From an uncultured Nitrospiraceae bacterium (GTDB lineage Bacteria > Nitrospirota > Thermodesulfovibrionia > UBA6902), in NCBI GenBank assembly GCA_964347155.1, contig CAYFXR010000149.1:1-33332 (forward strand): a DNA stretch of 33,332 nucleotides. The letters run 5' to 3'. Under the pieces are notes generated by a model. The model had not been told where the DNA came from. It saw only the letters and a list, made by a program, of their open reading frames with translations, and did no database searches. Below are positions 4,093-25,697 of the stretch, in pieces. The position numbers and the translations under genes are program-made. Every line of letters starts with the position of its first letter. Within the stretch, counting starts at the first letter, position 1.

Positions 4093-4176
4093 ATGCTGTT
4101 TTATTAACAACGCTTCATGTAAATTCGTTTTAACAGTTCCAGCCGTTCCAAATGTTCCAACGGATGGAACTGCTCA

Positions 4177-5306: not shown

Positions 5307-5363
5307 GATTCCTCCATAGTTAGGTTTCCAGACTTGTACTATAATAAAGCTATCGTATCTCTT

Positions 5364-6122
5364 TTAAAACTTGATAACTTTTCTGGTTAAGAAAATAATT
5401 GCGACTATGATTACCGCCCCCAATATTTTTTCCATAGATTTTGGGGAAAATTTAAATGAACCCATAAATGAACCAACTGTCCCTCCGGCTAAAACTGCTG
5501 CTATAAGTGGAATGTAATTTGTTAAATCGATCGAATTGTATTGAAGACGGGATAGCAACCCAAAGCAGGAATTAAGCCAAATGAAAATAGCTCCACAGGC
5601 AGCGGCTTCTTTTTCAGTGCCTAACCCTAAGATTATTATTAAAGGGACAAGGTAAATACCGCCGCCAATTCCGACTATTCCTGCAAACAGACCAAGTACT
5701 GAACCGGCAATTAATGAGATGATTATTTTTCCATTTTGATTAATGTTCAGTTTGATAGTTGTGTTTTCCCAAGCGTATATTCGTAATGCCACAAAAACCA
5801 AAGATATTAATAGCATCCAGTAGAATATTTCTTTTGGTAGTCTAAGCGACCCCCCCAAATACGCCATAGGGATTGAAGATAGCAAAAAGGGCACAATAAG
5901 CTTTATCCTGGCATGCTTGTTTCGAATAAAGTTAACGCTTCCAACTGACGTAACAAATAAATTCAGTGACAATGAAATCATGGGTATTGCCAGTGAACTT
6001 ATCCCAAAGATAGCCATCAATGCAGTATAGGAGGAACCGCCACCGAGCCCCACGGAAGAATAAGTGAATGCCACAAGAAAAAATAAAAATGCTAAAACGT
6101 ATGGTGATCCAATTATTTCCAA
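5364..6122 (-). CDS. TSUP (TauE/SafE) family anion permease
   Basis: 252 aa, ~8 TM segments, duplicated G-x-G-G-G motifs (GLGGGSSY / GIGGGIYLVP). Confidence 0.8.
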   Translation of the reverse strand: MEIIGSPYVLAFLFFLVAFTYSSVGLGGGSSYTALMAIFGISSLAIPMISLSLNLFVTSVGSVNFIRNKHARIKLIVPFLLSSIPMAYLGGSLRLPKEIFYWMLLISLVFVALRIYAWENTTIKLNINQNGKIIISLIAGSVLGLFAGIVGIGGGIYLVPLIIILGLGTEKEAAACGAIFIWLNSCFGLLSRLQYNSIDLTNYIPLIAAVLAGGTVGSFMGSFKFSPKSMEKILGAVIIVAIIFLTRKVIKF

Positions 6123-6259
6123 AAGGCATGCCTCCTTACATGAGCTGTCAGATTTAAGCTATTAGCCATAAGCTAAAAAATTATGAGCTTAACGCTTATA
6201 GCCAAAAGCTGTCGTCGTAGCATCGTTGCATAACGCACCCAAAAAATTAAATTAAAAAA

Positions 6260-6601
6260 TCAACTTCTCCCGTTGCCAAATACTTCGATGAATTTCTTAT
6301 CGAGCATCTCATTCACGCCTTCTTCAAGTAGTTCATATTTCCTTAAAAATGTTTTTGCCTCTTTTGTTAATAATGCCCCGCCGCCGTGAAGCCCCCCGGC
6401 TCTTCTTTCCACAAGTCTTGTTCCGAGCCTTTGTTCCATTGTCTGTATATAACTCAGAGCCTTTCTGAATGATATATTGATGTCTTTTGCTGCCTTATTA
6501 ATTGACCCCAATTTATCAATAGCCTTCAGTAAAGCCTCCCTGCCTCTGCCGAAAACAGGTTCGCCATCAACCTCAAGCCAGATCTTTGAGCGAATCTGCA
6601 T
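6260..6601 (-). CDS. ModE-like N-terminal winged-helix regulator (molybdate-responsive regulator HTH domain only, no Mop domains)
   Basis: 113 aa. FGRGREALLKAIDKLGSINKAAKDINISFRKALSYI is the ModE N-domain signature. It lacks the C-terminal di-Mop domains of full-length ModE. Confidence 0.7.
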   Translation of the reverse strand: MQIRSKIWLEVDGEPVFGRGREALLKAIDKLGSINKAAKDINISFRKALSYIQTMEQRLGTRLVERRAGGLHGGGALLTKEAKTFLRKYELLEEGVNEMLDKKFIEVFGNGRS

Positions 6602-6712
6602 AGTATCGTTATAACATATTTGTCACAACGGTGTAAAGAAAAAAATGTCAAAATGCAATTATCGGAGGCATAGATAACTTCGAAATATTTAAAAATGCAA
6701 CATGATTACCAG

Positions 6713-6781
6713 ATGCCATTTTGCAATCGATAAAAATTTTTTACATACATTTATACTGTTATGATTGCAAAATGGCATGTT
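6713..6781. promoter_or_regulatory. 15-bp inverted repeat TGCCATTTTGCAATC ...37 nt... GATTGCAAAATGGCA upstream of the modE-like gene
   Basis: Seen directly. Located in the 285-bp gap between the fmdE-like and modE-like genes. Confidence 0.4.
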
Positions 6782-6886
6782 TAAAGGAGTTGCTTTTAAA
6801 GCTTTTTTCAGGTATCTATGCCTGTTATTTGCATAGGGAAATGACGTAAAAGAACAAAGAAACTGCGGAAATGTGGGACTGCTGTA

Positions 6887-7489
6887 CTATGGCGATTTAT
6901 AATAGGATCCCTGGGCACAGGCTTTACAGAAAAGTCTGCCGTTTACATTGACATCCCTCTTGTCCTGGACGTATTCACCACATTTTTCGCATTTAATTCT
7001 CCGAACGGGCCTTCCGGGCATATCCTCTTCAGGTACTTCAACGCTTACATTTGTCCATTCGAATAATTCGTTATCAGGCATGATCTTATAAGCTTCAAGC
7101 TGGCATTTATATTTATCTTCAATATCTGGAAAATAATTTTTTGCCTTGTCTTTGGATTCCTCTTTCGCAAGAATTCTTACCGCTTTTCCTGTTTTCAGAT
7201 TTGCATAAGTAGCTGCCATCTTTCCGAAATCAAGAAATTTTAACGACCTTTTACCCAGGCTGCAGCCGGTAACGGACTGTATTGCATCGGTAGCGCACCG
7301 GTCTATTTCAACATACACAATGAGCTTCTTTCTATCCTGCCCCTTTGGATCATTTATCCCTATCAACTCAAGTCCTAAAATGCTCATCCTTACACCAAGG
7401 ACCTGTCCAGGGCAAAGATGTCCATGTGTTTTTACTGATTCCTCGAGGAGTCTCTCAAAACCGAGTTTATCTAACATCTCATATTCCAT
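6887..7489 (-). CDS. FmdE/FwdE-domain protein with C-terminal zinc ribbon
   Basis: HGHLCPGQVLGVRM motif characteristic of the FmdE family. C-terminal CEKCGEY...CKAC. Confidence 0.75.
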   Translation of the reverse strand: MEYEMLDKLGFERLLEESVKTHGHLCPGQVLGVRMSILGLELIGINDPKGQDRKKLIVYVEIDRCATDAIQSVTGCSLGKRSLKFLDFGKMAATYANLKTGKAVRILAKEESKDKAKNYFPDIEDKYKCQLEAYKIMPDNELFEWTNVSVEVPEEDMPGRPVRRIKCEKCGEYVQDKRDVNVNGRLFCKACAQGSYYKSP

Positions 7490-7899: not shown

Positions 7900-8754
7900 A
7901 TGTTTAAACTCAGTATATTCCTTATAGCATTTCTAATACTTTTCATTAGTACAAATATATCATATGCTAAGGAAAAGGAGATTATCTTTGCCATTTCGCC
8001 AATGGCATCTCCTGTTTCCACTCTCTCTTATTACAATGATTTTATAAGATATCTTTCTAAAAAGACAGGTCTAATGATCATTCCTAAACAGAGGAGAACC
8101 TACGCTGAGATTAACTCCCTTTTAAAGAAGGGCGAAGCAGAGTTCGCCTATACGTGCACCGGGGCTTACATAAGAGGCAATTTTGACTTCGGACTTGAAC
8201 TCCTTGCCGTGCCAGTCATAAATGGCAAGACAAGCTATCATTCATACATAATTGTAAACAAAGAAAGCAAGATCGAGATCTTCTCCGGGCTTCGAGGAAG
8301 GGTCTTTGCCTTTACAGACCCGCTCTCATTGACAGGGAGACTGTACATCATACATCTCCTTGATACAATGGGTCTCATACCGGAGGAATTTTTTGAAAAG
8401 ACTTTTTACACATCAAGTCATGAAAAATCAATACAATCTGTGGCAAATGGACTTGCAGATGGGGCGGCAGTTGACAGTCTTATTTTTGACGATATGAAGA
8501 GAAAACATGCCCCGTCCACAAGCAATGTAAGAATTATAAAGATTTCACCGCCTTACGGCATACCTCCGGTTGTGGCGTCTCCTGTTGCGGAAAAATCAAC
8601 CAAGCAGCTTATATTAAAGACCCTTATTAAGATGGCAGAGGATACAACCGGAAGGGAGATTCTCCAGGGAATCCATATTGAAAAATTTATTATTCCTGAC
8701 CCTGCTATTTATAAGACTGCGGCAGAAGTGAGGGAGGCAACATTTCTACGGTGA
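7900..8754 (+). CDS. PhnD/SsuA-family periplasmic solute-binding protein (sensor-associated, AioX/ArxX-like)
   Basis: Signal peptide. PhnD-like fold motifs. Single mature Cys in FAYTCTGAY. A strong SD (AGAGGGGAA) precedes the ATG. Overlaps the kinase start (GTGA). Confidence 0.8.
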   Translation: MFKLSIFLIAFLILFISTNISYAKEKEIIFAISPMASPVSTLSYYNDFIRYLSKKTGLMIIPKQRRTYAEINSLLKKGEAEFAYTCTGAYIRGNFDFGLELLAVPVINGKTSYHSYIIVNKESKIEIFSGLRGRVFAFTDPLSLTGRLYIIHLLDTMGLIPEEFFEKTFYTSSHEKSIQSVANGLADGAAVDSLIFDDMKRKHAPSTSNVRIIKISPPYGIPPVVASPVAEKSTKQLILKTLIKMAEDTTGREILQGIHIEKFIIPDPAIYKTAAEVREATFLR

Positions 8755-10175
8755 GATTAGGAAAAATCTACAACAGCATAGCATTTCGCATCTCTATCTC
8801 CATTGCCGTTGTAGTGGCTGCTACAACGATGGGTGTGAGTTGGCTGCTGCTGAGAGAAGAAAGAAAAACACTGGAACTTGAACTTCGTAGCAAGGGAATG
8901 TACCTTGCAAATACAATGTCCCACCATATCATCGAACCATTCCTTTATGAGGAACGGCATGAAATATTCTCTCTTCTCAAAGCATCTATGATTGACGAAG
9001 AGAGTCTTGTGGTGCATGCCGAGGTCTATGACAAGAATAGAGAATTGATTGTTACAGCAGACAAGGATGAAAAGTGGCAAACAATAAAGTTTCAGCCGCT
9101 TAACTTTGAAGATTCACTAGAGGATATTATTATCGAGGAAGACAATATCTTGCCAATTTATCATATATCTTTACCTCTTAAAGTAGAAGCACTTGGAACT
9201 ATTGGATTTATCAGGCTGTGCATAACAAAAGAATACCTTTATAAGACCCTTGGAAATGTAAAACAGAAGCTTTATCTTCTGTCAGCAGCCGTTATCTTTA
9301 TCGGCATAATGCTGGGACTCTGGATGGCAAGAAAAATTTTAAGACCAATACTTATTCTTAATAAAGGGGTAAAAATGGTTGGTGAAGGAGGGCCGGGTGT
9401 TGAGATACCTGTAGTTGGAGAGGGCGAGATAAAAGAGCTGGCACTTTCTTTTAACAGAATGTCCGAGAAATTGAAAGAACAGATTGAGGTGATAAAGACC
9501 GCTCAGGAAAATCTTATAAGGACAGAGAAACTCTATGCCGTTGGAGAATTCTCTGCAGGAATTGCACATGAAATAAAGAACCCTCTTACATCCATCAAAA
9601 TGCTTATGCAGACTACACGATACAAAAAAAAGGCACTGTCCGACAGAGATTTTGAGATTATTGAGGGAGAGATAAACAGGATAGATCGTATCGTAAAAGA
9701 GTTTCTTGCTTTTGCAAGACCTGAAAAGATTGAAAAGACAGATATAAGTATAAATGATGTCCTTGAAGAAGTTATTACATTGACCGAGCCAAAGATGAAA
9801 CAAACTACCATACAACTTGAACAGATGTTTTCTCCCAACCTGCCGATGATCAAGGGAAATCTTGATGGTCTCAAACAGGTTTTTCTCAATATTGTTCTTA
9901 ATGCCTTACAAGCAATGAATGGTGGTGGCACACTGGGTATAGAGACATCAAAGAATAAAGATATGCTGTCAGTTGTAATAAGAGACACCGGCGCTGGGAT
10001 TCCAAAACAGGATTTAAAAAGAATTTTTGACCCTTTCTTTACAACAAAAGAGGAAGGAACCGGTATGGGACTGGCTCTAACGTATAAAATAGTGAATGAC
10101 CACTCTGGCAAGATTGATATAGATTCGACTACATCCGGTACAACGGTAAAAGTGGATTTGCCCTTACCCGAATAA
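8751..10175 (+). CDS. Sensor histidine kinase (2 TM, periplasmic domain, HAMP, HisKA, HATPase_c)
   Basis: HEIKNPLTSI H-box and N/G1/G2 boxes (DTGAGIP, GTGMGLAL). GTG start overlaps the upstream stop. Confidence 0.85.
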   Translation: MRLGKIYNSIAFRISISIAVVVAATTMGVSWLLLREERKTLELELRSKGMYLANTMSHHIIEPFLYEERHEIFSLLKASMIDEESLVVHAEVYDKNRELIVTADKDEKWQTIKFQPLNFEDSLEDIIIEEDNILPIYHISLPLKVEALGTIGFIRLCITKEYLYKTLGNVKQKLYLLSAAVIFIGIMLGLWMARKILRPILILNKGVKMVGEGGPGVEIPVVGEGEIKELALSFNRMSEKLKEQIEVIKTAQENLIRTEKLYAVGEFSAGIAHEIKNPLTSIKMLMQTTRYKKKALSDRDFEIIEGEINRIDRIVKEFLAFARPEKIEKTDISINDVLEEVITLTEPKMKQTTIQLEQMFSPNLPMIKGNLDGLKQVFLNIVLNALQAMNGGGTLGIETSKNKDMLSVVIRDTGAGIPKQDLKRIFDPFFTTKEEGTGMGLALTYKIVNDHSGKIDIDSTTSGTTVKVDLPLPE

Positions 10176-10343
10176 TGCAGACATTGTAATAAAATTTATT
10201 TAATTCGATGGATTTATTATTAAATTATGCATATAGCTTGGAACAAACATATTCACCTTTGATTGGCTGGAATTGCGTCAAAGGTATCGAGAAATAGATT
10301 TTCTTCCAACGCCTGCATTATGTGAAATGCATTTTTTGGGTTT
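10164..10343 (+). mobile_element. MITE-like element, sub-family 2 (copy C), wedged exactly between kinase and sigma54-regulator genes
   Basis: Left TIR TTACCCGAATAATGCAGAC encodes the kinase's last codons L-P-E-stop. Right end ...AAATGCATTTTTTGGGTTT immediately precedes ATG 10344. Confidence 0.7.
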
Positions 10344-11750
10344 ATGAATACACTTCTTATTATAGATGACGAAAAAGCAGTGAGATACTCCTTTAAAAGG
10401 ATGTTTGAAGATGAATACAGGGTTTTAACTGCTGAGGACGGTGTATCGGCTCTGAATATTCTCGATACCAGCTATATTGGTGTTGACGTCATTTTCCTTG
10501 ATGTCAGAATGCCTGGCATGGGGGGGATAGAGGTGCTTAAAAAGATTAAGGAGATAACAAAGAACATTCCTGTTGTAGTAATGACGGCATTTGGCGATTC
10601 TGATACTGCTATTGAAGCTATGAAAGAAGGGGCGTTTGATTACCTTACAAAGCCTTTAGAGGGTAACCAGCTAAAAGATGTTATTGAAAAGGCGCTTGCA
10701 TCGGCACGGCTTCAGCAAGATGCTTCCTGTTGTGGAACGATAGAAGAACTCTCGGATAAGGAAGAGACAATTGTGGGAAAAACTCAGTCAATTCTTGATG
10801 TTTGTAAGATGATCGGTCAGGTTGCAAACACAGATGTGCCTGTGCTCGTAACAGGAGAAAGTGGTGTAGGAAAGGAGTTAGTGGCACGGGCAATATACAA
10901 CCACGGTAGTAGAAAAGGTAGACCTTTTATGGCTGTTAATTGTGCTGCACTTCTTGAGGGTGTGGTAGAGAACGAATTATTTGGTTCAGAGAAAGGGGCA
11001 TTCACGGGCGCTGACAAGAGGAGAATAGGAAGGTTCGAACAGTGTGACGGGGGTACTATCTTCCTTGATGAGATCGGAGATATGAGTATTCCAACTCAAG
11101 CTAAATTACTCAGGGTACTCCAGGATGGTAGCTTCGAGCGTATCGGAAGCAATGAGACAATAAAGACAAATGTGCGTATCATTGCTGCCAGTAATAAAAG
11201 TCTCCACGACGAGGTAAGGAACGGCAGGTTCAGAGAAGACCTGTTTCACAGACTCAATGTTTTTTCCATACACATTCCTGCGCTCAGAGAAAGAATGGAA
11301 GATATTCCGTTGCTCTCAGATTACTTCCTCTCAAGGGCGGTCAGGGATACGGATAAAAAGATCACGGGATTTTCACATGACGTAATTAAACGTTTTATGT
11401 CATATAACTGGCCGGGCAATGTGAGAGAGCTTGAAAATACCATAAAACGGGCTGTGGTAATTACTACTGGAGAGGTTCTTGGTGTGAATGATGTTATTTT
11501 AAATGCTGAGTCATGTACAAAAGAGTTTCAAGAGCTTTCTGTGGTAATTGACGGTTTATTTGAAAGGACGATTAACACGCAAGCCCCTTCAGACAGTTAT
11601 CACTCTATCCTCTCACGTGTGGAAAAATGTCTTATTGAAAAGGCACTAAATGTAACAAAGGGGAATCAGGTACAGGCATCTGCACTACTCGGTATTACAA
11701 GAGTCACATTAAGAAAAAAGATGCAAGAGTTCAAAATCCCGTCTGTATAG
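10344..11750 (+). CDS. Sigma-54-dependent response regulator (REC + AAA+ sigma54-activator + Fis-type HTH), NtrC/AioR-like
   Basis: Receiver Asp (FLDVRMPGMGG), Walker A GESGVGKE, GAFTGA motif, C-terminal HTH. Confidence 0.9.
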   Translation: MNTLLIIDDEKAVRYSFKRMFEDEYRVLTAEDGVSALNILDTSYIGVDVIFLDVRMPGMGGIEVLKKIKEITKNIPVVVMTAFGDSDTAIEAMKEGAFDYLTKPLEGNQLKDVIEKALASARLQQDASCCGTIEELSDKEETIVGKTQSILDVCKMIGQVANTDVPVLVTGESGVGKELVARAIYNHGSRKGRPFMAVNCAALLEGVVENELFGSEKGAFTGADKRRIGRFEQCDGGTIFLDEIGDMSIPTQAKLLRVLQDGSFERIGSNETIKTNVRIIAASNKSLHDEVRNGRFREDLFHRLNVFSIHIPALRERMEDIPLLSDYFLSRAVRDTDKKITGFSHDVIKRFMSYNWPGNVRELENTIKRAVVITTGEVLGVNDVILNAESCTKEFQELSVVIDGLFERTINTQAPSDSYHSILSRVEKCLIEKALNVTKGNQVQASALLGITRVTLRKKMQEFKIPSV

Positions 11751-12745: not shown

Positions 12746-12761
12746 TGGCAGGTTATTTGCA
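12746..12761 (+). promoter_or_regulatory. Sigma-54 promoter TGGCAGGTTATTTGCA upstream of SPFH gene / respiratory operon
   Basis: Excellent match to TGGCAC-N5-TTGCA. Lies 52 nt upstream of SD AAGGAGGA (12813-12820) and ATG 12826. Confidence 0.7.
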
Positions 12762-12825
12762 TCAAGAAAGGGAAAGGTTCATTGAACAAAAAATCTTTTA
12801 CGAAAAATAAAAAAGGAGGAGTTTG

Positions 12826-13605
12826 ATGCAACAGCTAACTTCTATTGGTTTCTTACTAGCTGTAATTTTAGGTATATATCTTCTTTCAATTGCAATTTAT
12901 ATTCTAAGGGAATACGAGAGGGGTGTCGTCTTCAGGCTTGGTAGGTTAATACCTGTAAAAGGTCCTGGTCTTGTAATTATCATACCAATTATCGATAGAC
13001 TTGTGAAGGTAAGCCTGCGGATCGTTGCCTTGGAGGTGCCTGCTCAGGACGTAATTACAAAAGACAACGTCTCCATAAAAGTAAGTGCGGTTCTCTATTA
13101 CAGACCTGTTGATGCTAACAAGGCCATAACGGAAGTTGAAGATTATCATTACGCTACTTCGCAGATATCTCAAACAACCCTGAGGAGTGTTTTAGGACAC
13201 AGTCATCTTGATGAGCTCCTTGCCAAAAGGGAGGAATTAAATTCTCGGCTACAAAAAATCATTGATGACCAAACAGAACCCTGGGGCATTAAGGTTACGA
13301 CGGTCGAGGTAAAAACCGTTGACCTTCCATCAGAAATGTTGAGGGCAATTGCAAGACAAGCAGAAGCTGAAAGAGAGAGAAGGGCAAAAGTCATTCATGC
13401 AGAAGGTGAATATCAGGCATCTCAAAAACTTGCAGATGCAGCGGCTATCATTGGGACCCAGCCAACGGCAATACAACTCAGATTTCTCCAGACATTAGTA
13501 GAAGTAGCTACTGAAAGGAATTCAACAACAATATTCCCTGTACCCATAGACCTTCTGGAACCTTTCTTGAAGAAATCTAGAAAAGAGAGTGGTGGAGATT
13601 TGTAA
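12826..13605 (+). CDS. SPFH/band-7 (stomatin/prohibitin-like) membrane protein
   Basis: N-terminal TM helix. [15 protein letters not shown]-domain signature. Coiled-coil/Ala-rich C-terminus. Confidence 0.85.
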
Positions 13606-13626: not shown

Positions 13627-14541
13627 ATGTATAGAGAAAACCGAAAGATGAGAAAGCTGAACCGAAGAGAATTTATAAGGCTGACAGCTGTTGGCGGGAC
13701 CGGCATTCTCCTGCCCCAACCGCTAAGGGTGCTTGATGACGCGTTTGACCAAATTATCGGGACTACACAGCAGAATAGCAAGATCGAATATGTACCGAAG
13801 CCGGTCACTGGGGTCAGATTCGGGATGGTTATAGACCTCGGAAAGTGCATTGGTTGCAGGCGGTGCATGTATGCCTGTAAACGGGAAAACAATGTGCCTG
13901 ACACCATTTCCCCTCCTTATATCATGGTGTTTGAAACCGAATCAGCTACGGGCGTAACAGGCCACTTCCCTTCACCGGAAATTCCGTGGAAGGGCACAAC
14001 AATGTATTACACCAGACTCCGGAAAGATAAGTGGTATATGCCAGTACAGTGTAACCATTGCGATCATGCTCCGTGTGTGAAAGTTTGTCCTACCGGAGCG
14101 TCATATAAAGATCCTGATGGTCTTGTATTGATAGATTATGAAAAATGTATAGGATGCCGGTATTGTATGACTGCATGTCCGTACAACGCCCGAAGATTCA
14201 ATTGGTGGGAGCCGGAGATACCTCATGACCGTATAAATCCCCTAGTGCCCTTACGCAGACACGGCATTGTAGAGAAATGCACCTTCTGCGTACACCGTAC
14301 AAGAAGGGGTAAATTCACACGTTGTGTGGAAGTATGCCCGAACAAGGCAAGAACCTTCGGAAATTTCAATGACCCTGACAGCAGGGTTTCCAAATTGGTT
14401 GAAACCGAAAGGAACTTCCGACTAAAGGAAGGACTTAATACAGAGCCACGTATATGGTATCTCACAAGACCCAAAGAAAAGCGCATGAGGTGGTATCGTC
14501 CCCTGCCTCCGTCTGAAAATATCAGAGGTGTCAGGTCATGA
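13627..14541 (+). CDS. TAT-exported 4x[4Fe-4S] ferredoxin subunit (NrfC/PsrB/DmsB-like)
   Basis: Twin-arginine motif NRREFIRL. Four Cys clusters (CIGCRRCMYAC; CNHCDHAPCVKVCP; CIGCRYCMTACP; CTFC...CVEVCP). The alternative start at 13648 is equally possible. Confidence 0.85.
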   Translation: MYRENRKMRKLNRREFIRLTAVGGTGILLPQPLRVLDDAFDQIIGTTQQNSKIEYVPKPVTGVRFGMVIDLGKCIGCRRCMYACKRENNVPDTISPPYIMVFETESATGVTGHFPSPEIPWKGTTMYYTRLRKDKWYMPVQCNHCDHAPCVKVCPTGASYKDPDGLVLIDYEKCIGCRYCMTACPYNARRFNWWEPEIPHDRINPLVPLRRHGIVEKCTFCVHRTRRGKFTRCVEVCPNKARTFGNFNDPDSRVSKLVETERNFRLKEGLNTEPRIWYLTRPKEKRMRWYRPLPPSENIRGVRS

Positions 14542-15716
14542 AAGATGTAAGCAGATCCTTTCACATCTTTGTTGTCGTATTGCTGGTCGTGATAGGCCTG
14601 GGCAGCTTCAACTGGCTTCGTTTCTTAACACATGGCCCCGGACTTACCGGTTCAAGTGATGCGGTGCCATGGGGAATATACATAACCGGGCTGGCATACT
14701 TTATAGGATTAAGTGCAGGCGCAACAATCGTCGGATTATTGATACACGGGTTTGGCCGTAATGACTACAAACCAATAGGGATACGCGCAATTCTTCTCGC
14801 GCTCCTCTGTATCTTCGGAGCCACACAATTTGTCCTGGTAGACCTGGGTGTTCCTTTTAGGGGATTGAAGGTGCCTCTCGTACTTCACAACCTGACGTCA
14901 CTCTTCCTTATCTCCTCGTCAAGCTATTACGGATTTATGACCATATTGGGAGGAGAACTCTACTTCTCAATAAAAGTGGCGAAAGGGAAAGCAAGCCACC
15001 GGGATGAAACAATAGCAAAATGGCTTGGAATTCTTGCGGTTCCGTATGCCCTCTGGGTAGTTCATGCCTTCACTGGATCAATCTTTGGTGTAGTAAAAGC
15101 AAGGGAAATGTGGAATACCCCCATGCTGCCGGTACATTTCGTGATATCAGCCATTGCAAGCGGATTTGCCATGGTGATATTGGTAGGAATAATAACATCG
15201 AAAATAGAAAAAAGAGAGCTCCTGAGCAGTGGAACTTATGACCACATGGGTAAACTGCTGGCCTTCTTTGTGGTAGTAACCCTGTTCCTTGACTTCTTTG
15301 ACTATTTTATTCTTCGATACAGCGCAAAAGCAGAGGCAATGGAAACATGGCATATTCTGACGGGCAGATATGCCCCTGTATTGGCAATGAATATCGGTGG
15401 ATTGGCTTCTGCGTTTTTGATACTGATCTTCAGAAAGGGGAGAACCGTCAATGGAATGTTTATTGCTACGATCCTGGTACAGCTGGCAATCATAGCATAT
15501 CGTATTAATCTGGTATCAGTAGGACAGTTAGTCCCTTTATTCCCGGGTATGGGTGAAATATACTACAGCCCGACATTTTCAGAGATATCAGTGGCGTTGG
15601 CTTTAGTGGCGCTTGTAATACTCCTTTATGCGGTGCTGTCCAGGATAATGCCTATGGAAGAAACAGTTCAGGAACTTGTACAGCAGCCGGTACAACGCAG
15701 CTGGAGGCATAGATAA
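14538..15716 (+). CDS. NrfD/PsrC-family polytopic membrane quinol-interacting subunit
   Basis: 392 aa, ~9-10 TM helices. ATGA overlap with the upstream FeS gene, typical for PsrBC/NrfCD pairs. Confidence 0.85.
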   Translation: MKDVSRSFHIFVVVLLVVIGLGSFNWLRFLTHGPGLTGSSDAVPWGIYITGLAYFIGLSAGATIVGLLIHGFGRNDYKPIGIRAILLALLCIFGATQFVLVDLGVPFRGLKVPLVLHNLTSLFLISSSSYYGFMTILGGELYFSIKVAKGKASHRDETIAKWLGILAVPYALWVVHAFTGSIFGVVKAREMWNTPMLPVHFVISAIASGFAMVILVGIITSKIEKRELLSSGTYDHMGKLLAFFVVVTLFLDFFDYFILRYSAKAEAMETWHILTGRYAPVLAMNIGGLASAFLILIFRKGRTVNGMFIATILVQLAIIAYRINLVSVGQLVPLFPGMGEIYYSPTFSEISVALALVALVILLYAVLSRIMPMEETVQELVQQPVQRSWRHR

Positions 15717-18851: not shown

Positions 18852-18983
18852 TTTTATGCTCTGTCCTATGATTGAAATATAGTAACTACTCATGTCTCTT
18901 CCTTTGGAATTTGAAAAAAAGGGAGGATTATAGGGGTGAGTTGCTACAAATATAACACAATTGATCGAAAAAAGGAGGTAACC

Positions 18984-19856
18984 ATGAGTAAGATAAATAC
19001 TGTAACTGTATCCCGCCGCGATGTGCTCAAGACAGGCAGCGCTGTTGTTGCGGCTGCTGCTACAACAACAGGCCTTGTGCCAGATGTAGCAGAGGCTGCA
19101 AAAAAGAAAAAGAAAAAACTTGCCCGCTGGGCTATGGTAGTTGACCTCAGGAGATGCATTGGCTGCAGGGGATGCTGCATTGCAGACAAGGCAGAATATG
19201 GAGCTGCACTCGGAAGGTATAACACGGTTGTCAAGAATGTAGAGTACGGCAAATATCCTGCTCCCCAAAAGCATTTCCTTCCTCGTCTGTGTAACCACTG
19301 TGCAGGCGACCCATCAAAAGAATGGCAGGTCCCGCCATGTGTTGAGGTATGTCCCGAAGCAAAAAGCGGAGAGAGGAAGAAAATGGGGAATGAAAGATAC
19401 AGGACAGGCGCTACGTATAAGCGACCTGACGGGATGATTTTGATAGATCCCAACCTCTGTATCGGCTGTTACAAATGTGTTGATGCATGTCCGTATGGAG
19501 TGCGCTCTCCTGACCCTAATGTAAAGCTTACCAGGCCTGACAGGGAAAAGGATATCGGAGTGGGTAAATGTACGTTCTGCCGGCATCGTGTCGATAAGGG
19601 AATTACGACTTCATGTACGAATACCTGTCAGGGCATGGCAAGGAATTTCGGTGATCTGAACGACAAAAAAAGCAAGGTCTATAAACTTGCCAAGGAATTT
19701 AAATTGCTCGAAAACAGGGACAAGTCAACCCTGCTTCCGGAAGAAAAGACTATGCCTCACGTATTTTATATAGACCCGGATGGTGTGTTAGCGCACTACA
19801 ATAAGAAAATTACAAAAGAGACAAAATTGCGGGAGTTTACATCCTGGTTTGAATAA
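18984..19856 (+). CDS. TAT-exported 4x[4Fe-4S] ferredoxin subunit partner of the molybdopterin enzyme (PsrB/ArrB/DmsB-like)
   Basis: SRRDVLK TAT motif after ATG 18984 (SD AAAGGAGG). Four Cys clusters. The ORF-track GTG 18936 extension is unlikely. Confidence 0.85.
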   Translation: MSKINTVTVSRRDVLKTGSAVVAAAATTTGLVPDVAEAAKKKKKKLARWAMVVDLRRCIGCRGCCIADKAEYGAALGRYNTVVKNVEYGKYPAPQKHFLPRLCNHCAGDPSKEWQVPPCVEVCPEAKSGERKKMGNERYRTGATYKRPDGMILIDPNLCIGCYKCVDACPYGVRSPDPNVKLTRPDREKDIGVGKCTFCRHRVDKGITTSCTNTCQGMARNFGDLNDKKSKVYKLAKEFKLLENRDKSTLLPEEKTMPHVFYIDPDGVLAHYNKKITKETKLREFTSWFE

Positions 19857-19889: not shown

Positions 19890-22373
19890 ATGGCTAATGT
19901 AACACGACGAAATTTCATACAGCTGGGCATCGCAAGCGGAGCCCTCCTTGCTGCCGGAGAAGGTATTGTATTCCCTGCTTTAGCTGGTGCAGTAAAGTTA
20001 GATAAAGGCGGCAAGGATTTCAACTTTAAGACGGATGCAGAGAGAACAGCCATTCCAACTGCATGCTGGTCATGTTTTACCAGGTGTGCGGCTATCGGTT
20101 TTGTGGAGGATGGCAAGCTTGTTAAAATCGAATCCAATCCTAATTCTATCAGAACCGAGGGCAAAATGTGTGCAAAAGGACAGTCAGGTCCCAACGATAT
20201 CTATTTCCCGGACAGGATACTCTATCCAATGAAACGTGCAGGCAAACGCGGTGAGGGTAAATGGAAGAGGATTTCCTGGGATGAGGCTATTACAGAATTA
20301 TCAGGACGGCTAAAAAAGCTCCGTGACGACGGTAATCCAGAGAAATTCATGTTCCACTATGGCATGATGGAGGCAAGTTCTAGAAAACTGATGAAAAACG
20401 TTTTCCTTGATACGTACGGCACAGGGACGATAGGAAACCATACCTCTACAAGCACGAGCGCAAAAAAGACAGCGCAGGAACTGACGTGGGGCGAGTTCTT
20501 CGATAACTGGGACTTTGACAATACCAAGTTTGTCATGAATTTTGGAAGTAACGTGCAGGAGGCCCATATCAATCATGTACCTTGCTCAAACAGGCTGATA
20601 AAGGCAAGGGTTGAAAACGGTGTAAAGAGTGTTACCTTTGATGTGAGATTTTCAAATACCGCGGCAAAGTCAACTGAATGGATACCAATCAAACCGGGAA
20701 CCGATGGAGCAGTTGCCCTCGCTATGTGTAATGTGATAATGCAAAACGATCTTTATGACAAGGATTTCTTTACATTCATCAGGGCTAAGGAGAATGTCAA
20801 TCTCTCTATAGACGAAAAGGTATCTGCTTTGAAATCTCACCTCTCCCGATATACACCTCAATGGGCGGAAAAAGTAAGCGGTGTGAGCGCCGCTAAGATC
20901 GAATCTCTCGCAAAAGAATTCGCAAAGACAAAGCCTGCAGTAGTAATCAGCTTTAGAGGGGCAATAGCCCATTACAACGGTGTCGAAAACGAACGTGCTA
21001 TCCAGATGCTTGCTGCAATAACAGGCAACATTGATAACCCAGGCGGAAGATGCAGAGGTGTGCGAGCCAGATGGGAATATCCAAAGGGGCCGAAAGATAA
21101 ACCGGAGACAAAGAGACTGGATATAATTGACGGCAAAGGCGCAGCCCTACCGACTCACAACATGGGACACCAGGTATTTAAGATGATCAAGGAAGGCGGT
21201 AATGGAAGACCTGAAGTATACATGTGGTACTGCTATAACCCTGTGTATGTGAACGGCGAAAGCACGGAGAATGCAGAGGTTCTGAAAGACGAAAAGATGA
21301 TCCCCTTTACAGTGGCTTCAACTATTGTCTATGACGAATCGAGCAAACTCGCTGATTTGATCCTGCCTGATGCCACCTATCTCGAAAGATGGGACTGGGA
21401 AGACAATGTCTCCCCCACTCAGATTCCAGAATACTATATCCGACAGCCCCTGGTAAAGCCGCTTGGGGAGGCCAGGGATTTTGGAGACGTGGTGATTGAG
21501 ATTGCAGAGAAAATGGGCATGCCTTTAGGTGTTGGCAGTTCTAAAGAGGAGTTTGTAAGGAAATCCTGCGAGATGACTCCCGGTGTAAAGGAGGCAGGCG
21601 GCTTTGAGTACATGAAGAAGCAGGGTGTGTGGCATGACCCGAATGAAAAACCTCGTTATCATCTATACAGGGAAGAAGTAAAGACTGACGGTGCAATTCT
21701 TGATGAAGCAACGGGCGTATACTGGAGAGGAAAAGCAGGTGAAGATTACACCAAGACCAGAAATGCATACAGACAGTATGTTGGCCAGAAAATAGGAGAC
21801 AAGGTCTACAGAGGCTTTTATCCTGACAAGCTCAATAAGACTGGTTACTTTGAGCTTTACTCCGCGCTTATGAAAGAAAAGGGCTTTGACCCTCTTCCAA
21901 CCTGGATGCCGATACCTGAGCATGAGAACATGAAGCCTGATGAGCTGATTCTTGCTACCTATAAAGTCGCCATTCATATCCTCTCAAGGAGTTCACACCG
22001 TAAATGGCTAAGCGAGGTTTACCATGACAATCCAGGATGGATCAATCCTAAAACCGCAGCTACACGGGGTATCAATGATGGAGACAAAATCAAGGTTAAA
22101 TCAAGAGTCGGAGAGATTATAACCAGAGCACGTGTTACCGAAAAGGTTATTCCCGGAGTCATAGCCATCTCCTTTCATGCAGGACGCGAGGAAAGCGGAA
22201 GATACGGATCAGGCAATAAGTCACCGGAGGCACATGATAATGACCCGGATCTCCAGAACAAGTTCTGGGATACATATGGTGTAAATTCAAACAGGATTAT
22301 CCCCAACTCTTCTGACCCAATAAGTGGCCAGCTGTGCTGTATGGATACGGTTGTAACAGTGACAAAAGCATAG
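19890..22373 (+). CDS. TAT-exported molybdopterin oxidoreductase catalytic subunit, Psr/Phs/Ttr/Arr clade of the DMSO-reductase family
   Basis: TRRNFIQLG TAT signal. N-terminal CxxCxxxC...C [4Fe-4S] motif (CWSCFTRC...MCAKG). RISWDEAI and FGSNVQEAH family motifs. 827 aa. SD AAGGAGGA. Confidence 0.85.
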   Translation: MANVTRRNFIQLGIASGALLAAGEGIVFPALAGAVKLDKGGKDFNFKTDAERTAIPTACWSCFTRCAAIGFVEDGKLVKIESNPNSIRTEGKMCAKGQSGPNDIYFPDRILYPMKRAGKRGEGKWKRISWDEAITELSGRLKKLRDDGNPEKFMFHYGMMEASSRKLMKNVFLDTYGTGTIGNHTSTSTSAKKTAQELTWGEFFDNWDFDNTKFVMNFGSNVQEAHINHVPCSNRLIKARVENGVKSVTFDVRFSNTAAKSTEWIPIKPGTDGAVALAMCNVIMQNDLYDKDFFTFIRAKENVNLSIDEKVSALKSHLSRYTPQWAEKVSGVSAAKIESLAKEFAKTKPAVVISFRGAIAHYNGVENERAIQMLAAITGNIDNPGGRCRGVRARWEYPKGPKDKPETKRLDIIDGKGAALPTHNMGHQVFKMIKEGGNGRPEVYMWYCYNPVYVNGESTENAEVLKDEKMIPFTVASTIVYDESSKLADLILPDATYLERWDWEDNVSPTQIPEYYIRQPLVKPLGEARDFGDVVIEIAEKMGMPLGVGSSKEEFVRKSCEMTPGVKEAGGFEYMKKQGVWHDPNEKPRYHLYREEVKTDGAILDEATGVYWRGKAGEDYTKTRNAYRQYVGQKIGDKVYRGFYPDKLNKTGYFELYSALMKEKGFDPLPTWMPIPEHENMKPDELILATYKVAIHILSRSSHRKWLSEVYHDNPGWINPKTAATRGINDGDKIKVKSRVGEIITRARVTEKVIPGVIAISFHAGREESGRYGSGNKSPEAHDNDPDLQNKFWDTYGVNSNRIIPNSSDPISGQLCCMDTVVTVTKA

Positions 22374-22462: not shown

Positions 22463-22746
22463 TTAACTCAAATAATGCAGAGTCGATTCGACCTCAAAAA
22501 TACCCGTCATACCTCCCCCTTTGGAAAAGGGGGATTTAGGGGGATTTTATAATGATAACGTCCTATAAATCCCCCCTCTCCCCGTATAGGGGCGTTGCAT
22601 CAACGGCGAAAAGCCGCGTTGCGGCCTCGCCGCTTTACGCGGGGCTTTACGCCCCACTTTAATAAAGTGGGGGAAATATATAATTAATATTGCGTTTAAG
22701 GTATCGTCCCGACACATCGGGACATTATTTAAAATGCATTTTTGGG
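22463..22746 (+). mobile_element. MITE-like element (copy E) carrying a ~185-bp GC-rich multi-hairpin cassette
   Basis: Family termini TTAACTCAAATAATGCAGAG ... TTAAGGTATCG...AAAATGCATTTTTGGGCT. Internal hairpins: CCCCCTTTGGAAAAGGGGG; GGGGGATTTTATAATGATAACGTCCTATAAATCCCCC; CCCCACTTTAATAAAGTGGGGG. Confidence 0.65.
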
Positions 22747-22754
22747 CTGAAGAA

Positions 22755-23408
22755 ATGACGAAAAAAATGATCGAAACAGCAAGACAACGAAGCAATATTT
22801 ACGGACTGCTTGCACTTGTTTACCGCAAAGAGGTGACAAAGACACTATTAAGGCATTTAAAAGACCCGGAGTTCCTTTCTGTCTTGTCAAACATGGGAGC
22901 TAGGCTGGAGGATGATTTTTTGAAAAGGCCCGAGGACGAATTAATAGAAGACCTTTCGATAGAATATACAAGACTGTTCTTAGGGCCTGGTAAGCATATC
23001 TCTCCCCATGAATCTGTTCATCATGAGAGAGGTGACGGAGATTGGGGCCAATTGTGGGGCAGGGCAACCGTTGAGGTAAAAAAATTTATTGAAACAGCAG
23101 GGCTTAAATATACGTCCAGTTACCCAGGATTACCTGACCACATCAGCGTTGAATTTGAATTCATGAGGGAAGTTACCAGGCGTGAAGCACATGCCCTCGA
23201 AGAGAATGATAATGATGGGCTGCTCTCTTGTCTGATGATGGAGAACAAATTTATCGAAGACCATCTCTTAAAATGGGTTCCCATCTTTTGTGATAAGATC
23301 ATCTCTGAAGCGGAATTGTCTTTTTACAGGGAAATAGCAAAAATAACAAAGCTTTTTATTGAATTTGAAAAAGAAGAATTGAAGGGATATATATCAGTTT
23401 TATTTTAG
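22755..23408 (+). CDS. TorD/DmsD-family redox-enzyme maturation chaperone
   Basis: EYTRLFLGPG signature. The ORF-track start at 22734 lies inside the repeat terminus (AAATGCATTTTTGGG). ATG 22755 or 22767 is more plausible. Confidence 0.75.
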   Translation: MTKKMIETARQRSNIYGLLALVYRKEVTKTLLRHLKDPEFLSVLSNMGARLEDDFLKRPEDELIEDLSIEYTRLFLGPGKHISPHESVHHERGDGDWGQLWGRATVEVKKFIETAGLKYTSSYPGLPDHISVEFEFMREVTRREAHALEENDNDGLLSCLMMENKFIEDHLLKWVPIFCDKIISEAELSFYREIAKITKLFIEFEKEELKGYISVLF

Positions 23409-23415: not shown

Positions 23416-24201
23416 TTATCGCAGTCTGAGGTCTGCTGTCACTTTATCCTTATGGCATGTGATACATATTTTAAAAATTGGGCCACTTATACGGAACGTT
23501 GAATTCCCACTTGCTCCTTCTGCCTCAGATCTTTCAGTTTGACCAGCCAGACGAACCCTGTATTTCTCACTAGCCCCTTTTGCGGCAGATTTCTCATAAG
23601 GTATTACTCCTCTTTCATGTGGATTATGACAGGTAGCACACATAATTTCCCCTTTGAAATTTAGCGGAAGTATTATATCGAACTCTTTTTCTGATGCTTT
23701 CATCATTGCCAGCATCTCATTGGATGGCTTGCATATGTGATTTGCATTTACAGGATGTGCATGGTCATACACTTTACTGTGACATCCCAGGCACAGCACA
23801 TCAAGACTTCTAATGAATTTAATTTCCGGACGATGGATTGTAAATGTTGCACGTTTTTCATCAGGCTTTTCCGGATGGCAGTATAAACACTTTTCTCTGA
23901 TAATATCTCCTGTTTCATTTAACTGGTTATGAGGATCGAAAATCTTATATTTATTTTTTTGATGGCACTTAGAACAGATATCTTTTTTTTGAAGGGAGGC
24001 TTTTTTTTGAAATTTCCTTACAGTTCTCTTGTGAACTTTATGCCATCCCCACTTTCCTCTATAGGAAGGATCTATTTCATCGTTTTCAGTATCATTCTGA
24101 GTAAATCTGACAGGTATTATTTTACCTCTCTCTTGTGCGGATAATGTATTGCTCATAGGAATCATTATTATGAGTAGGAGAATTGATATTGTGCGATTCA
24201 T
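23416..24201 (-). CDS. Periplasmic pentaheme cytochrome c
   Basis: Five CxxCH (CSKCH, CLYCH, CLGCH, CATCH, CITCH). The signal peptide starts at the Met at 24201. The upstream 46 codons of the ORF-track model read through a repeat copy. Confidence 0.8.
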   Translation of the reverse strand: MNRTISILLLIIMIPMSNTLSAQERGKIIPVRFTQNDTENDEIDPSYRGKWGWHKVHKRTVRKFQKKASLQKKDICSKCHQKNKYKIFDPHNQLNETGDIIREKCLYCHPEKPDEKRATFTIHRPEIKFIRSLDVLCLGCHSKVYDHAHPVNANHICKPSNEMLAMMKASEKEFDIILPLNFKGEIMCATCHNPHERGVIPYEKSAAKGASEKYRVRLAGQTERSEAEGASGNSTFRISGPIFKICITCHKDKVTADLRLR

Positions 24202-24211
24202 TATCACGCCA

Positions 24212-24350
24212 TTAATCCAAACAATACATTTCAGATAATGCAGGCTTTGTGTCCCGATGCATCGGGACGATACCTTGGAAATTCGTAATCCATGTCCGTA
24301 GTACGTGTCCGTAAAAAACGGATAACGGACACGTTTCACGATAATATAAG
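24212..24350 (-). repeat. Partial MITE-like copy (copy F) plus hairpin CGTGTCCGT..ACGGACACG
   Basis: TTAATCCAAACAATACATTTCAGATAATGCAGGC terminus. Internal GGTATCGTCCCGAtgCATCGGGAC is shared with copy E. Confidence 0.55.
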
Positions 24351-24509: not shown

Positions 24510-25697
24510 TTAAATTTCTATATCCTTCCACTTTATTAAATACATGACAACAATCCCTACAAAAAATGCGATTCCCATATTAGTTGTTGCAAGACCGATA
24601 CCTGCAATCATTAATGCTACGAAAAGGTCTCTCTTTTCTTTTACATCTCTTATCAGCAAAGCCAGTTCAAGCCCTGCATATAGAAGAAGTATACCCAGAA
24701 CAGCATTGGGGATTGATGACAGAAGAGATATCCCTATCTTGCCAAAGACAAGGGCAATCAGCACAAAAATAGCCCCGATCATTACATTAGAACCACCTGT
24801 CCTTGCACCGAATCTGTAGTGTGCAGCAAGACCGCCTGCACCATGACACATAGGCATCCCTGCAATTGATCCCGTAACGATGTTCGTAAGACCCATGCTT
24901 GTAGCAAATCCACGATAACTTACCCTCTTGGTACTCTCTCCTTTACCAAAAAGGGAAAAACATGTATCAGCGGTGCCCATTACCGCATTACCCAGGGTTA
25001 GAGGTATCTGGGGAATTACAAGAAGAATAAAGGCGTTCACGAAGTCATCCATAGTGGGTTTGAAGACTTTAATCGGTGCAGGTCCTAATGAGAGGCTGAC
25101 ACCTTCCAGTGCTCCGCTTAACACGCCGATAACGATTCCCGTGAATACTATTACGATGGCTGCTGGAAAGCGTTTGCTCGATATCAACATAAGTACAATG
25201 ACAAATCCTAAAATACCGATTACTAGATTGAAAGAGATGCCTGTAAAAGAAATAACCGCACCGGATTTTTGGATAAAAAGCTCAGGTTTTTGGATAAAAC
25301 TGATTCCTTTCGTGATAAGGATAAGTCCAAGCCCTAACTGTATACCCCTCATGATTGGTTTTGTAAAGAATTTAGCTAGCCAGTCAATCAAACCGGTAAA
25401 GGATAAAAATAGTAAAATTGCCCCAAAAGTTATACCTGATGCCGCTATAATCGGCAAGGTTATCTTCGCAGGATATGCAATAGCAATTGCTGATACCACC
25501 TTTAACGGCTGTACAGGTATGGGGAGTTTATAATAGATACCACTGACGATATAAAAAAGACCAACCATCAAAAGCACAGAAGTTACACCAAGACCGGTAA
25601 TAACTATTAGTGCTACAGAAAGCGGAATTAATGTACCAAGGTCTCCCAGAGAGCCTGCAAACTCTACCCTGTCAAACTTAAATGAGCCAATCTGCAT
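24510..25697 (-). CDS. MOT1-family (SulP-like, no STAS domain) putative molybdate transporter
   Basis: Contains both MOT1 signature motifs: PVQPLKVVSAIA (cf. PxQPMKxIxA) and GMPMCHGAGGLAAHYRFGARTG (cf. MPxCHGxGGLAxQYxFGxRxG). ~10 TM. Confidence 0.7.
   Translation of the reverse strand: MQIGSFKFDRVEFAGSLGDLGTLIPLSVALIVITGLGVTSVLLMVGLFYIVSGIYYKLPIPVQPLKVVSAIAIAYPAKITLPIIAASGITFGAILLFLSFTGLIDWLAKFFTKPIMRGIQLGLGLILITKGISFIQKPELFIQKSGAVISFTGISFNLVIGILGFVIVLMLISSKRFPAAIVIVFTGIVIGVLSGALEGVSLSLGPAPIKVFKPTMDDFVNAFILLVIPQIPLTLGNAVMGTADTCFSLFGKGESTKRVSYRGFATSMGLTNIVTGSIAGMPMCHGAGGLAAHYRFGARTGGSNVMIGAIFVLIALVFGKIGISLLSSIPNAVLGILLLYAGLELALLIRDVKEKRDLFVALMIAGIGLATTNMGIAFFVGIVVMYLIKWKDIEI

Follow-up and report, generated by a model that had tools for sequence, protein, structure and literature searches.

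A putative natural cysteine-to-serine switch of the molybdenum ligand in a large, uncharacterised family of sensor-linked periplasmic molybdoenzymes

Introduction

The protein ligand to molybdenum (Mo) in enzymes of the dimethyl sulfoxide (DMSO) reductase family, which may be selenocysteine (Sec), cysteine, serine or aspartate, is regarded as fixed and clade-defining, and laboratory swaps of this residue, such as the DmsA Ser176 variants and DMSO reductase S147C, usually cripple activity. Here we describe a gene in which such a swap seems to have happened in nature. It encodes the catalytic subunit of a predicted Mo or tungsten (W) enzyme with a bis(pyranopterin guanine dinucleotide) (bisPGD) cofactor and is located at 19890..22373 (+ strand) of a 33,332-nucleotide contig from an uncultured Nitrospiraceae bacterium (CAYFXR010000149.1; this whole stretch of DNA is called the window below). 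Its closest relatives of known structure are PsrA of Thermus thermophilus (2vpw) and ArrA of Shewanella ANA-3 (6cz7), both of which have a cysteine ligand. In ArrA, the residues Tyr166, His189, Ser190, Lys198 and Tyr210 are presumed to form hydrogen bonds with the substrate (PMC10654088). The protein from the window has serine, Ser188, in the ligand column, and belongs to a small sub-clade of a family whose other close members have cysteine there. Judged from sequence comparisons, this appears to be a real case of a Cys-to-Ser ligand switch that arose in nature, is maintained by selection and came with a rebuilt pocket. The molybdoenzyme family in which it occurred is large, uncharacterised and linked to oxyanion sensors.

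Results

Serine in the metal-ligand column

The catalytic subunit, a protein of 827 amino acids, is encoded by an intact open reading frame (ORF) and carries the domains that define the Mo-bisPGD superfamily. Pfam identifies Molybdop_Fe4S4 at residues 55-105, Molybdopterin at 109-540 and Molydop_binding at 686-814, with E=1e-40 for PF00384 and E=7e-19 for PF01568. The N-terminus has a twin-arginine translocation (Tat) signal, TRRNFIQ, and the four cysteines of the FS0 iron-sulfur (Fe-S) cluster, C59, C62, C66 and C94 (motif CX2CX3C...C), align with C8/C11/C15/C42 of FdhF and C46/C49/C53/C81 of NapA. Residues 176-193, YGTGTIGNHTSTSTSAKK, include the ligand loop H184-T-S-T-S188-T-S-A-K-K193, and no cysteine is present in it. 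The motif FGSNVQEAH occupies residues 218-226, and the first cysteine past FS0 is C232. A first-pass annotation made from the letters of the window had described the Fe-S motif, FGSNVQEAH, the Cys-free loop and the first cysteine at ~232, and all these statements were correct on re-check.

In phmmer comparisons with PDB sequences, the cysteine ligands of PsrA, SLC(173)TA, and ArrA, HSSVC(193)AE, both fall on Ser188, whose codon is AGC (20451..20453, + strand); relatives with a cysteine, here called Cys-type, have TGC or TGT at this place. In addition, we used MAFFT L-INS-i to align the products of Escherichia coli K-12 dmsA, ynfE, ynfF, torA, napA and fdhF with Ser-type and Cys-type members of the family, the anchors being Cys179 of NapA, Ser205 of DmsA, Ser191 of TorA and Sec140 of FdhF, the last of which is encoded by an in-frame TGA. 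FdhF Sec140, NapA Cys179, DmsA Ser205, YnfE Ser196, YnfF Ser195 and TorA Ser191 share the column of Ser188, and so does the cysteine of the Cys-type members. Ser188 is one of the residues (Sec, Cys, Ser or Asp) expected in the metal-ligand column of the superfamily. The first-pass proposal that a hydroxyl residue takes the place of a Cys or Sec ligand agrees with both the PDB and the E. coli alignments, as every reference ligand, including those of PsrA, ArrA, DmsA and TorA, lands on Ser188. The cysteine of NHVPCSNRL, C232, had been named as the residue that might prove to be a conserved, displaced ligand; it is not a ligand, since the relatives examined have V or L there, its column is not conserved, and Ser188 fills the ligand column. 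The residue following the ligand in Ser-type sequences is Thr, matching the S-T of YnfE, YnfF and TorA and resembling the S-S of DmsA. From these alignments we infer that the Oγ of Ser188 coordinates Mo in the bis-PGD cofactor.

An AlphaFold2 (AF2) model of the subunit, built from a 37-sequence alignment, had a mean predicted local distance difference test score (pLDDT) of 79 and a predicted template modelling score (pTM) of 0.83. The top Foldseek matches were all Mo/W-bisPGD enzymes, in the order PsrA (2vpw), ArrA (6cz7), and then formate dehydrogenases, Nap, acetylene hydratase and DMSO reductases. In the NCBIfam scan, no family reached its cutoff; PhsA, DmsA/YnfE, ArrA, QrcB, TtrA and other families were all considered, and all scores were far under the cutoffs. 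The subunit is a member of the Mo-bisPGD superfamily that lies outside the curated models of PhsA/PsrA, ArrA, DmsA/YnfE, TtrA and QrcB.

A young Ser sub-clade under purifying selection

The protein search yielded 2,422 proteins at E<1e-30, and the best 120 of these, 63-100% identical to the query, were used for the family counts. The ligand column holds Cys in 107 and Ser in 13 of the 120. The Cys-type loop is GNHTSICEGGKWTAQELTWG (core HTSICEGGKW), and the Ser-type loop is GNHTSTS(T/N)(S/N)AK(K/W); the 13 sequences with the latter (P0001-P0010, P0012, P0013 and P0015) are called the Ser clade below. A scan of GTDB species-representative genomes found 242 loci, 80 of which were kept (L001-L080). 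Six of these are Ser-type (L001-L004, L007 and L013), and all other loci checked are Cys-type. The Ser-containing loop is seen on seven independent contigs as well as in the 13 protein clusters. Five of the six Ser-type records are labelled as Nitrospirota, Nitrospirae, Nitrospirales or Thermodesulfovibrionia, and one as Deferribacteres. The Cys-type members come from Desulfobacterota, Nitrospirota, Alpha- and Gammaproteobacteria, Nitrospinota, Mariprofundaceae and others, and include an isolate, Sedimenticola hydrogenitrophicus SB48. Literature searches for a paper describing the parent family or the Ser variant found none.

In a neighbour-joining tree, the Ser sequences formed one clade even with the 19 diagnostic columns taken out. 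P0009 was basal in this clade, and its sister was the Cys group P0011, P0017, P0055, P0018 and P0021. Identity is 76-91% within the Ser clade and up to ~81% between the Ser clade and Cys-type proteins. The Ser form is one young monophyletic sub-clade of a Cys-ligated family, and the Ser-type enzyme descends from Cys-type ancestors, not from the Dms clade. One Nitrospirae metagenome-assembled genome (MAG), PIVU01, contains two such operons, one with a Cys-type enzyme (L009) and one with a Ser-type enzyme (L013), and in L007 another FeS-NrfD-cytochrome set comes after the Ser-type gene (L007:2535-11792), which suggests tandem operons. Both the double copy and the second set are consistent with paralogy.

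The ratio of nonsynonymous to synonymous rates (dN/dS) inside the Ser clade is 0.04-0.09, with dS >1, that is, with synonymous sites saturated. Among the 227 positions with at least 98% conservation in Cys-type proteins, 200 have the same residue in at least 90% of Ser-clade sequences; neither group varies at K192, R356 or R700, and no Ser-clade sequence that covers the FS0 cysteines lacks any of them. The Ser-type gene is under strong purifying selection and is not decaying. The codon of Ser188 is AGC or AGT in the Ser clade, compared to TGC or TGT in Cys-type genes, a pattern that reads as a single T-to-A change (TGY to AGY) followed by synonymous drift.

The third FS0 cysteine (position 66; codon 20085-20087) is replaced by Asp in 71 of the 107 Cys-type homologues, for example in P0031 and in WP_015403467.1 of Desulfocapsa sulfexigens. 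Position 66 is Cys in the 12 Ser-clade sequences covering it and in 35 Cys-type proteins. This would imply that the FS0 cluster is Asp-ligated or three-iron in most of the family.

Residues replaced together with the ligand

A set of residues that are 98-100% conserved in the Cys-type proteins is replaced throughout the Ser clade. Arg159, found in 100% of the Cys-type proteins, is M, T, V or L in the Ser clade (Met159 in the window, 20364..20366, + strand), and His698, found in 98%, is Leu in 13/13 (Leu698, 21981..21983, + strand). In the ligand loop, I187 is changed to T, with both T187 and S188 present in 13/13; E189 is T in 12/13 and N in P0009, and W193 is K in 12/13. Elsewhere, H203 is F or Y in 12/13, T227 is I, V, F or S, Y355 is F (S in P0009), H799 is N, and Y204F is partial. 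In addition, Y672W is found in 13/13, and W802 is replaced by varied residues, also in 13/13. The basal P0009 holds only a part of the set, as W193, H203, Y204 and K406 are kept, and this suggests an order of events. Compared to the parent, the pocket has lost Arg159, Glu189 and three histidines and gained Lys193, while Lys192 and Arg356 are kept.

In the phmmer comparisons with PDB sequences, position 159 aligns with ArrA Arg165 and PsrA His145, positions 184, 185 and 188 with ArrA His189, Ser190 and Cys193, position 193 with ArrA Lys198, and position 204 with ArrA Tyr210. R356 aligns with PsrA Arg332, and the replaced position 355 adjoins it. ArrA Arg165, PsrA His145 and PsrA Arg332 are taken here to be substrate-contacting residues as well. 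The histidine of position 698 is also found in DmsA (H707), YnfE, YnfF, TorA (H702) and NapA (H726). The remodelling thus appears to centre on positions that touch the substrate or, presumably, the pterin in characterised relatives.

A Cys-type homologue from Nitrospiraceae (L019:5166-7709) has the loop VDSICLSGKF and the replacements R159A, H184V, E189L, W193F and H203Y. It looks like a second, independent specificity variant in the same operon type.

Operon and neighbouring genes

The first gene of the operon encodes an SPFH/Band7 membrane protein (12823..13605, + strand; Pfam Band_7), which is first in both Ser-type and Cys-type Nitrospirota loci (synteny of L001, L005, L017 and L081). It is followed by a quinone module (13627..15716, + strand) comprised of a Tat-exported DsrO-like Fe-S protein (13627-14541, +; Tat signal RREFI; NCBIfam DsrO, 218.9 bits with the cutoff of 200) and an NrfD-family membrane protein (14538-15716, +; Pfam NrfD). 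Two multihaem c-type cytochromes, identified by Pfam and by haem-motif counts, come next; one has 8 CXXCH motifs and an N-terminal membrane anchor (15753-17219, +), and the other has 11 CXXCH and one CX3-4CH motif (17280-18851, +). The gene before the catalytic one encodes a four-cluster Fe-S B subunit with its own Tat signal (18936..19856, +; Pfam Fer4_11 and TAT_signal). This protein is TtrB/DsrO/ArrB-like, with scores under the NCBIfam cutoffs; its gene adjoins the gene of the molybdopterin (MoPt) subunit in essentially all loci, and it is the electron-transfer partner of the catalytic subunit.

Downstream of the catalytic gene is a gene for a TorD/NarJ-family redox-enzyme maturation chaperone (22734..23408, + strand; Pfam Nitrate_red_del, E=1e-24), which is kept 3' of the enzyme gene in the Ser-type loci L002, L003, L004 and L013. 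The 360-nt gap between the two genes (22374-22733) is unusually G+C-rich for a contig with 40% GC. Within it are a tandem AGGGGGATTT x2, an inverted repeat of 16 nt (22523-22538 / 22566-22581) and a perfect 10-nt hairpin (22652-22672), and the gap may be a terminator, an attenuator or a small repeat element. A convergent gene with its own sigma-54-like element encodes a c-type cytochrome with five haems by motif count (23416..24339, - strand), homologues of which lie near the operon in L003, L004, L005, L013 and L081.

Genes for molybdenum uptake and cofactor synthesis flank the operon. A MOT1-family molybdate transporter is encoded at 24510..25697 (- strand; Pfam MFS_MOT1, E=3e-51), and on the other side a molybdenum-cofactor gene block spans 3088..7489 (- strand), with MoaA (3088-4110), a MoeA-like protein (4200-5306), a TauE-like protein (5364-6122), a ModE-like domain (6260-6601) and an FmdE-like protein (6887-7489), all on the same strand. 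An ArsC-like low-molecular-weight phosphatase is encoded at 1480..1917 (- strand; Pfam LMWPc). Its score with TIGR02691, the thioredoxin-type arsenate reductase family, is just under the cutoff (156 bits and 174, respectively), and its homologues are found beside the family loci L006, L049, L063 and L085. Unrelated to the enzyme is a 730-aa fusion of 2-hydroxyacyl-CoA-dehydratase D-component and BcrAD/BadFG activator ATPase domains (29236-31428, - strand).

The enzyme had been thought unusual for its gene neighbourhood. This does not hold, as the same operon, Band7-FeS-NrfD-multihaem-multihaem-FeS-MoPt-TorD, occurs with Cys-type enzymes in six other Nitrospirota loci (L005, L006, L009, L017, L019 and L055). 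Desulfobacterota loci have a rearranged version of the operon, and Proteobacteria loci have the plain order FeS-NrfD-MoPt-TorD. In some Cys-type loci (L082:6333-13301), a Porin_5 outer-membrane protein and a NapC/NirT-type cytochrome stand before the enzyme in place of the NrfD module, and an NAD(P)-binding Fe-S flavoprotein and a Rieske/cytochrome b complex stand after it, which shows how easily the family changes its electron-transfer partners.

Oxyanion sensor and sigma-54 elements

A trio of genes at 7900..11750 (+ strand) is arranged as in AioXSR/ArxXSR. It encodes an ArrX/AioX-like periplasmic binding protein (7900-8754), a HAMP histidine kinase (8751-10175) and a sigma-54-dependent response regulator (10344-11750), the latter two identified by Pfam. 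Among PDB sequences, the nearest to the binding protein are ArrX of Chrysiogenes arsenatis (6x6b; E=7e-46) and AioX (E=1e-32), and phosphite and phosphonate binders follow at E=4e-12 or worse. The binding protein retains the pocket residues listed for the AioX subfamily (Tyr, Cys, Tyr, Ser, Ser/Thr, His, Asp; PMC5908839). The same kind of sensor is found beside 25 of 85 family loci (L001-L085), mostly Cys-type and from several phyla. Therefore, the sensor module belongs to the whole family. The type of the sensor points to an oxyanion substrate, possibly arsenic, and the Cys-type parents may make up a respiratory system, so far undescribed, for arsenic or another oxyanion. The sensor is no proof of arsenic, because ArrXSR-like genes have also been reported beside a putative sulfur reductase, a non-arsenic enzyme of the DMSO-reductase family (PMC13444090).

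The loci with this sensor include L009, L013, L028, L029, L077 and L085, and an ArsC-like gene is often near. In the binding protein beside Cys-type L009 (PIVU01), the pocket Cys and Asp are missing (Y-S-N-Y-S-L-S-H-G).

A sigma-54-type -24/-12 element, TGGCAGGTTATTTGCA, is located at 12746..12761 (+ strand), 62 nt 5' of the Band7 gene (12823). Two further sigma-54-like elements are found in intergenic regions, one upstream of a receiver gene (12022-12037, +) and one upstream of the five-haem cytochrome gene (24378-24393, -). All three are near the consensus TGGCA-N6-TTTGC, with one mismatch each, and are correctly oriented. The number of consensus matches over the window, 23 with 15 +/- 4 expected, is not above chance, and we propose only these three one-mismatch intergenic sites as candidate elements. 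The element at 12022-12037 overlaps the TTG annotated as the start of the receiver ORF (12021), and for this reason the ORF probably begins instead at the ATG near 12098.

Discussion

Proposed function

We consider it probable, at roughly 0.6, that the enzyme is a functional, cofactor-containing periplasmic Mo-bisPGD (possibly W) oxidoreductase ligated by Ser188, and a neofunctionalised paralogue. At the stem of the Ser sub-clade, one T-to-A change would have made Cys188 a serine, and about ten near-invariant residues (159, 187, 189, 193, 203, 227, 355, 698, 799 and, in part, 204) would have shifted along with the ligand. Relative to the Cys-type parent, the enzyme may as a result have changed its substrate specificity, its operating potential or both. 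TorD would help to insert the bis-PGD cofactor ahead of Tat export. Electrons would pass, in one direction or the other, between the catalytic site and the quinone pool by way of FS0, the four-cluster B subunit, the two multihaem cytochromes, which presumably wire the catalytic dimer to the quinone module, and the Fe-S/NrfD module of DsrOP/QrcCD-like type. The ArrX/AioX-type oxyanion sensor probably turns on expression via the sigma-54 regulator.

The presence of a TorD-like chaperone had been taken as an argument for cofactor insertion. The chaperone is confirmed by Pfam, and the other evidence agrees: along with TorD, the MOT1, MoaA, MoeA-like and ModE-like genes and the 200 of 227 retained positions favour cofactor insertion over an empty scaffold. 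Of the suggestion of DMSO- or trimethylamine N-oxide (TMAO)-reductase-like chemistry, the serine ligand stands, and such chemistry is only one possibility. K192 and R356 are kept, K193 is gained, and the sensor is of the ArrX/AioX type. These features, together with a pocket that is still cationic, favour an oxyanion, which would be at least as likely a substrate as a neutral S- or N-oxide.

Several points weigh against this interpretation. The confidence of the AF2 model is moderate, and it is lowest in loops 181-190, 697-702 and 766-790, those that normally pack against the cofactor. Ser186, Thr187, Thr189 or Ser190 could in principle replace Ser188 as the true ligand. The replacement H698L drops a histidine common to five E. 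coli Mo-bisPGD enzymes and could weaken the binding of the pterin, and the closeness of positions 203, 227, 698 and 799 to the metal comes from the alignment, not from measured distances. Finally, TorD is missing within 10 kb in L081, a Ser-type locus.

Alternative explanations

The alternative that survives best, although we consider it unlikely, is that the enzyme still acts on the substrate of its parent, and that the Cys-to-Ser change and the second-shell replacements only shift the Mo redox potentials or the oxygen tolerance, as would suit a different niche or reaction direction. The operon architecture, which matches that of Cys-type Nitrospirota loci, would fit well, as would the same ArrX/AioX-type sensor pocket beside enzymes of both types and the retention of K192, R356, R700 and H184. 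However, residues equivalent to substrate contacts are also replaced (R159, W193, H203 and, in part, Y204), and the coexistence of Cys and Ser copies with their own operons in one MAG (L009 and L013) is more typical of divergent function.

It is improbable that the subunit is a cofactor-less scaffold similar to QrcB or ActB, with only a structural or electron-transfer role in a cytochrome:quinone oxidoreductase, as the first-pass annotation had allowed. The operon does encode multihaem cytochromes along with NrfD and an Fe-S protein of the DsrO/QrcC kind; the canonical ligand has gone, the histidine at position 698 is now Leu, and QrcB is among the weaker NCBIfam matches. Still, Cys-type enzymes have the identical cytochrome and NrfD context, and the score with the QrcB model is 183.6 bits, while the cutoff is 440. 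Moreover, TorD is still encoded both in the window and in L002, L003, L004 and L013, the operon is flanked by Mo uptake and cofactor genes, and most near-invariant positions are kept. The ligand loop itself is highly conserved in the Ser clade (T187 and S188 in 13/13, T189 in 12/13), which would be unexpected for an empty site.

Even less probable is that another residue is the ligand, or that the metal has no protein ligand, as in the arsenite oxidase Aio, with Ser188 being a space filler. The loop has many other hydroxyl residues (S186, T187, T189 and S190), and the AF2 confidence in it is low, but six independent reference enzymes with known ligands align exactly to Ser188, and C232 is not conserved. 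Sequencing errors, misassembly and a pseudogene, for none of which a supporting point was found, can be dismissed, because the Ser loop occurs in 13 protein clusters and on seven independent contigs from different studies and is encoded by two codons, and the ORF is intact with low dN/dS.

Significance

If Ser188 is indeed the ligand of a functional enzyme, a further possibility may be raised tentatively, with odds that we put below even. The recent Cys-to-Ser swap, which took place at roughly 75-80% sequence identity in a family that otherwise is strictly Cys-ligated, could together with the rebuilt pocket have given rise to a new respiratory enzyme of Thermodesulfovibrionia that is controlled by the ArrX/AioX-type switch and uses a substrate outside the characterised Mo-bisPGD families, derived from a parent that is itself an undescribed oxyanion respiratory system. 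Possible substrates would then include a different oxyanion of arsenic, antimony or selenium, or the enzyme could run the reaction of the parent in reverse. The parent family would then be a respiratory system widespread in bacteria of marine sediments and oxygen-minimum zones.

The predicted ligand swap has happened between proteins that are ~75-78% identical and is held under strong selection. The Cys-type sister, the basal Ser-type P0009 and the derived Ser-type enzymes form a ready-made series, which would allow one to ask which second-shell changes make the swap viable and how it affects the potential and the substrate range. In addition, the case points to a large family whose members, at least 2,400 database proteins at E<1e-30, are periplasmic molybdoenzymes for which we found no assigned function and many of which adjoin arsenic-type oxyanion sensors.

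Comparison with described systems

Of the known groups, the parent family most resembles the Psr/Arr group, whose cysteine ligand the enzyme lacks. PsrA of Thermus thermophilus is its best PDB sequence match (177.6 bits), with Foldseek E=4e-41 and TM scores of 0.73-0.81. The common features are Tat export, FS0, the four-cluster B subunit and the quinone link through an NrfD-family protein, and the arginine equivalent to PsrA Arg332 is kept as R356. On the other hand, identity to PsrA is only ~22%, the score with the PhsA model NF012032 is 342.1 bits while the cutoff is 694, and Ser188 takes the place of Cys173, the ligand typical of these enzymes. Unlike in PsrA/PhsA, two multihaem cytochromes and a second Fe-S protein stand between the catalytic dimer and NrfD, and a TorD chaperone is present.

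ArrA of Shewanella ANA-3 is the second-best PDB match. The likeness extends to the Cys-type parent, where R159, H184, T185, C188 and Y204 correspond to Arg165, His189, Ser190, Cys193 and Tyr210 of ArrA; the Ser clade, in turn, has a lysine at the position of ArrA Lys198. As in the Arr, Arx and Aio systems, an XSR sensor is adjacent, although this alone is no proof of membership, and the regulator is of the sigma-54 type, as are AioR and ArxR; like Arr and Arx, the locus has an arsC-like gene on the contig. In contrast, the score with the ArrA model NF041714 is 174.8 bits with the cutoff of 1600, and the ligand is Ser, not Cys. The (R/K)GRY motif of ArrA is absent, the corresponding sequence being FHYGMM here and FHYGRM in the Cys-type parent family; the motif of ArxA is XGRGWG.

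Like DmsA, YnfE and YnfF, the enzyme has Ser in the ligand column followed by Ser or Thr, the FS0 cysteines, Tat export and a chaperone of the TorD/DmsD family. The score with TIGR02166 (326.9 bits) is nearly at the level of that with PhsA, yet it does not reach the cutoff of 777.7. The aromatic residue that precedes the ligand in these enzymes (Y-S) is Thr here, and the Trp that DmsA has at the position of R356 (W386) is absent.

The QrcABCD complex and alternative complex III (ACIII) also combine a multihaem cytochrome, a molybdopterin-fold protein without a Cys ligand, an Fe-S protein and NrfD. The match to the QrcB model NF041783 is far below the cutoff, as described above, and, unlike for QrcB and ActB, TorD and Mo genes are present, and the ligand loop and the positions of the cofactor domain are conserved. 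The qrc operons are not known to have a dedicated redox-enzyme maturation protein (REMP) chaperone. MofABC/Mob of iron oxidisers were considered as well and set aside, as they are ACIII-type proteins of a different family.

Finally, the MOLY cluster (MolyA/B/C) comprises candidate genes for sulfur disproportionation (Novak et al. 2026, PMC12998232); the MolyA gene set is heterogeneous, and its function is that of a candidate only (PMC12998232). The Cys-type protein WP_015403467.1 of Desulfocapsa sulfexigens, a cultured organism (loop HTSICEGGKW), is among the 27 seeds of the MolyA profile (PMC12998232), and is the only seed with the motifs of the family in the files searched (200/236). Like the locus described here, the MOLY cluster has an A subunit, a B subunit and a TorD-type chaperone. 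MolyA is characterised by the authors' orthogroup OG1 and by the synteny MolyA-MolyB-MolyC without a membrane anchor; in the locus described here, an NrfD anchor module is present.

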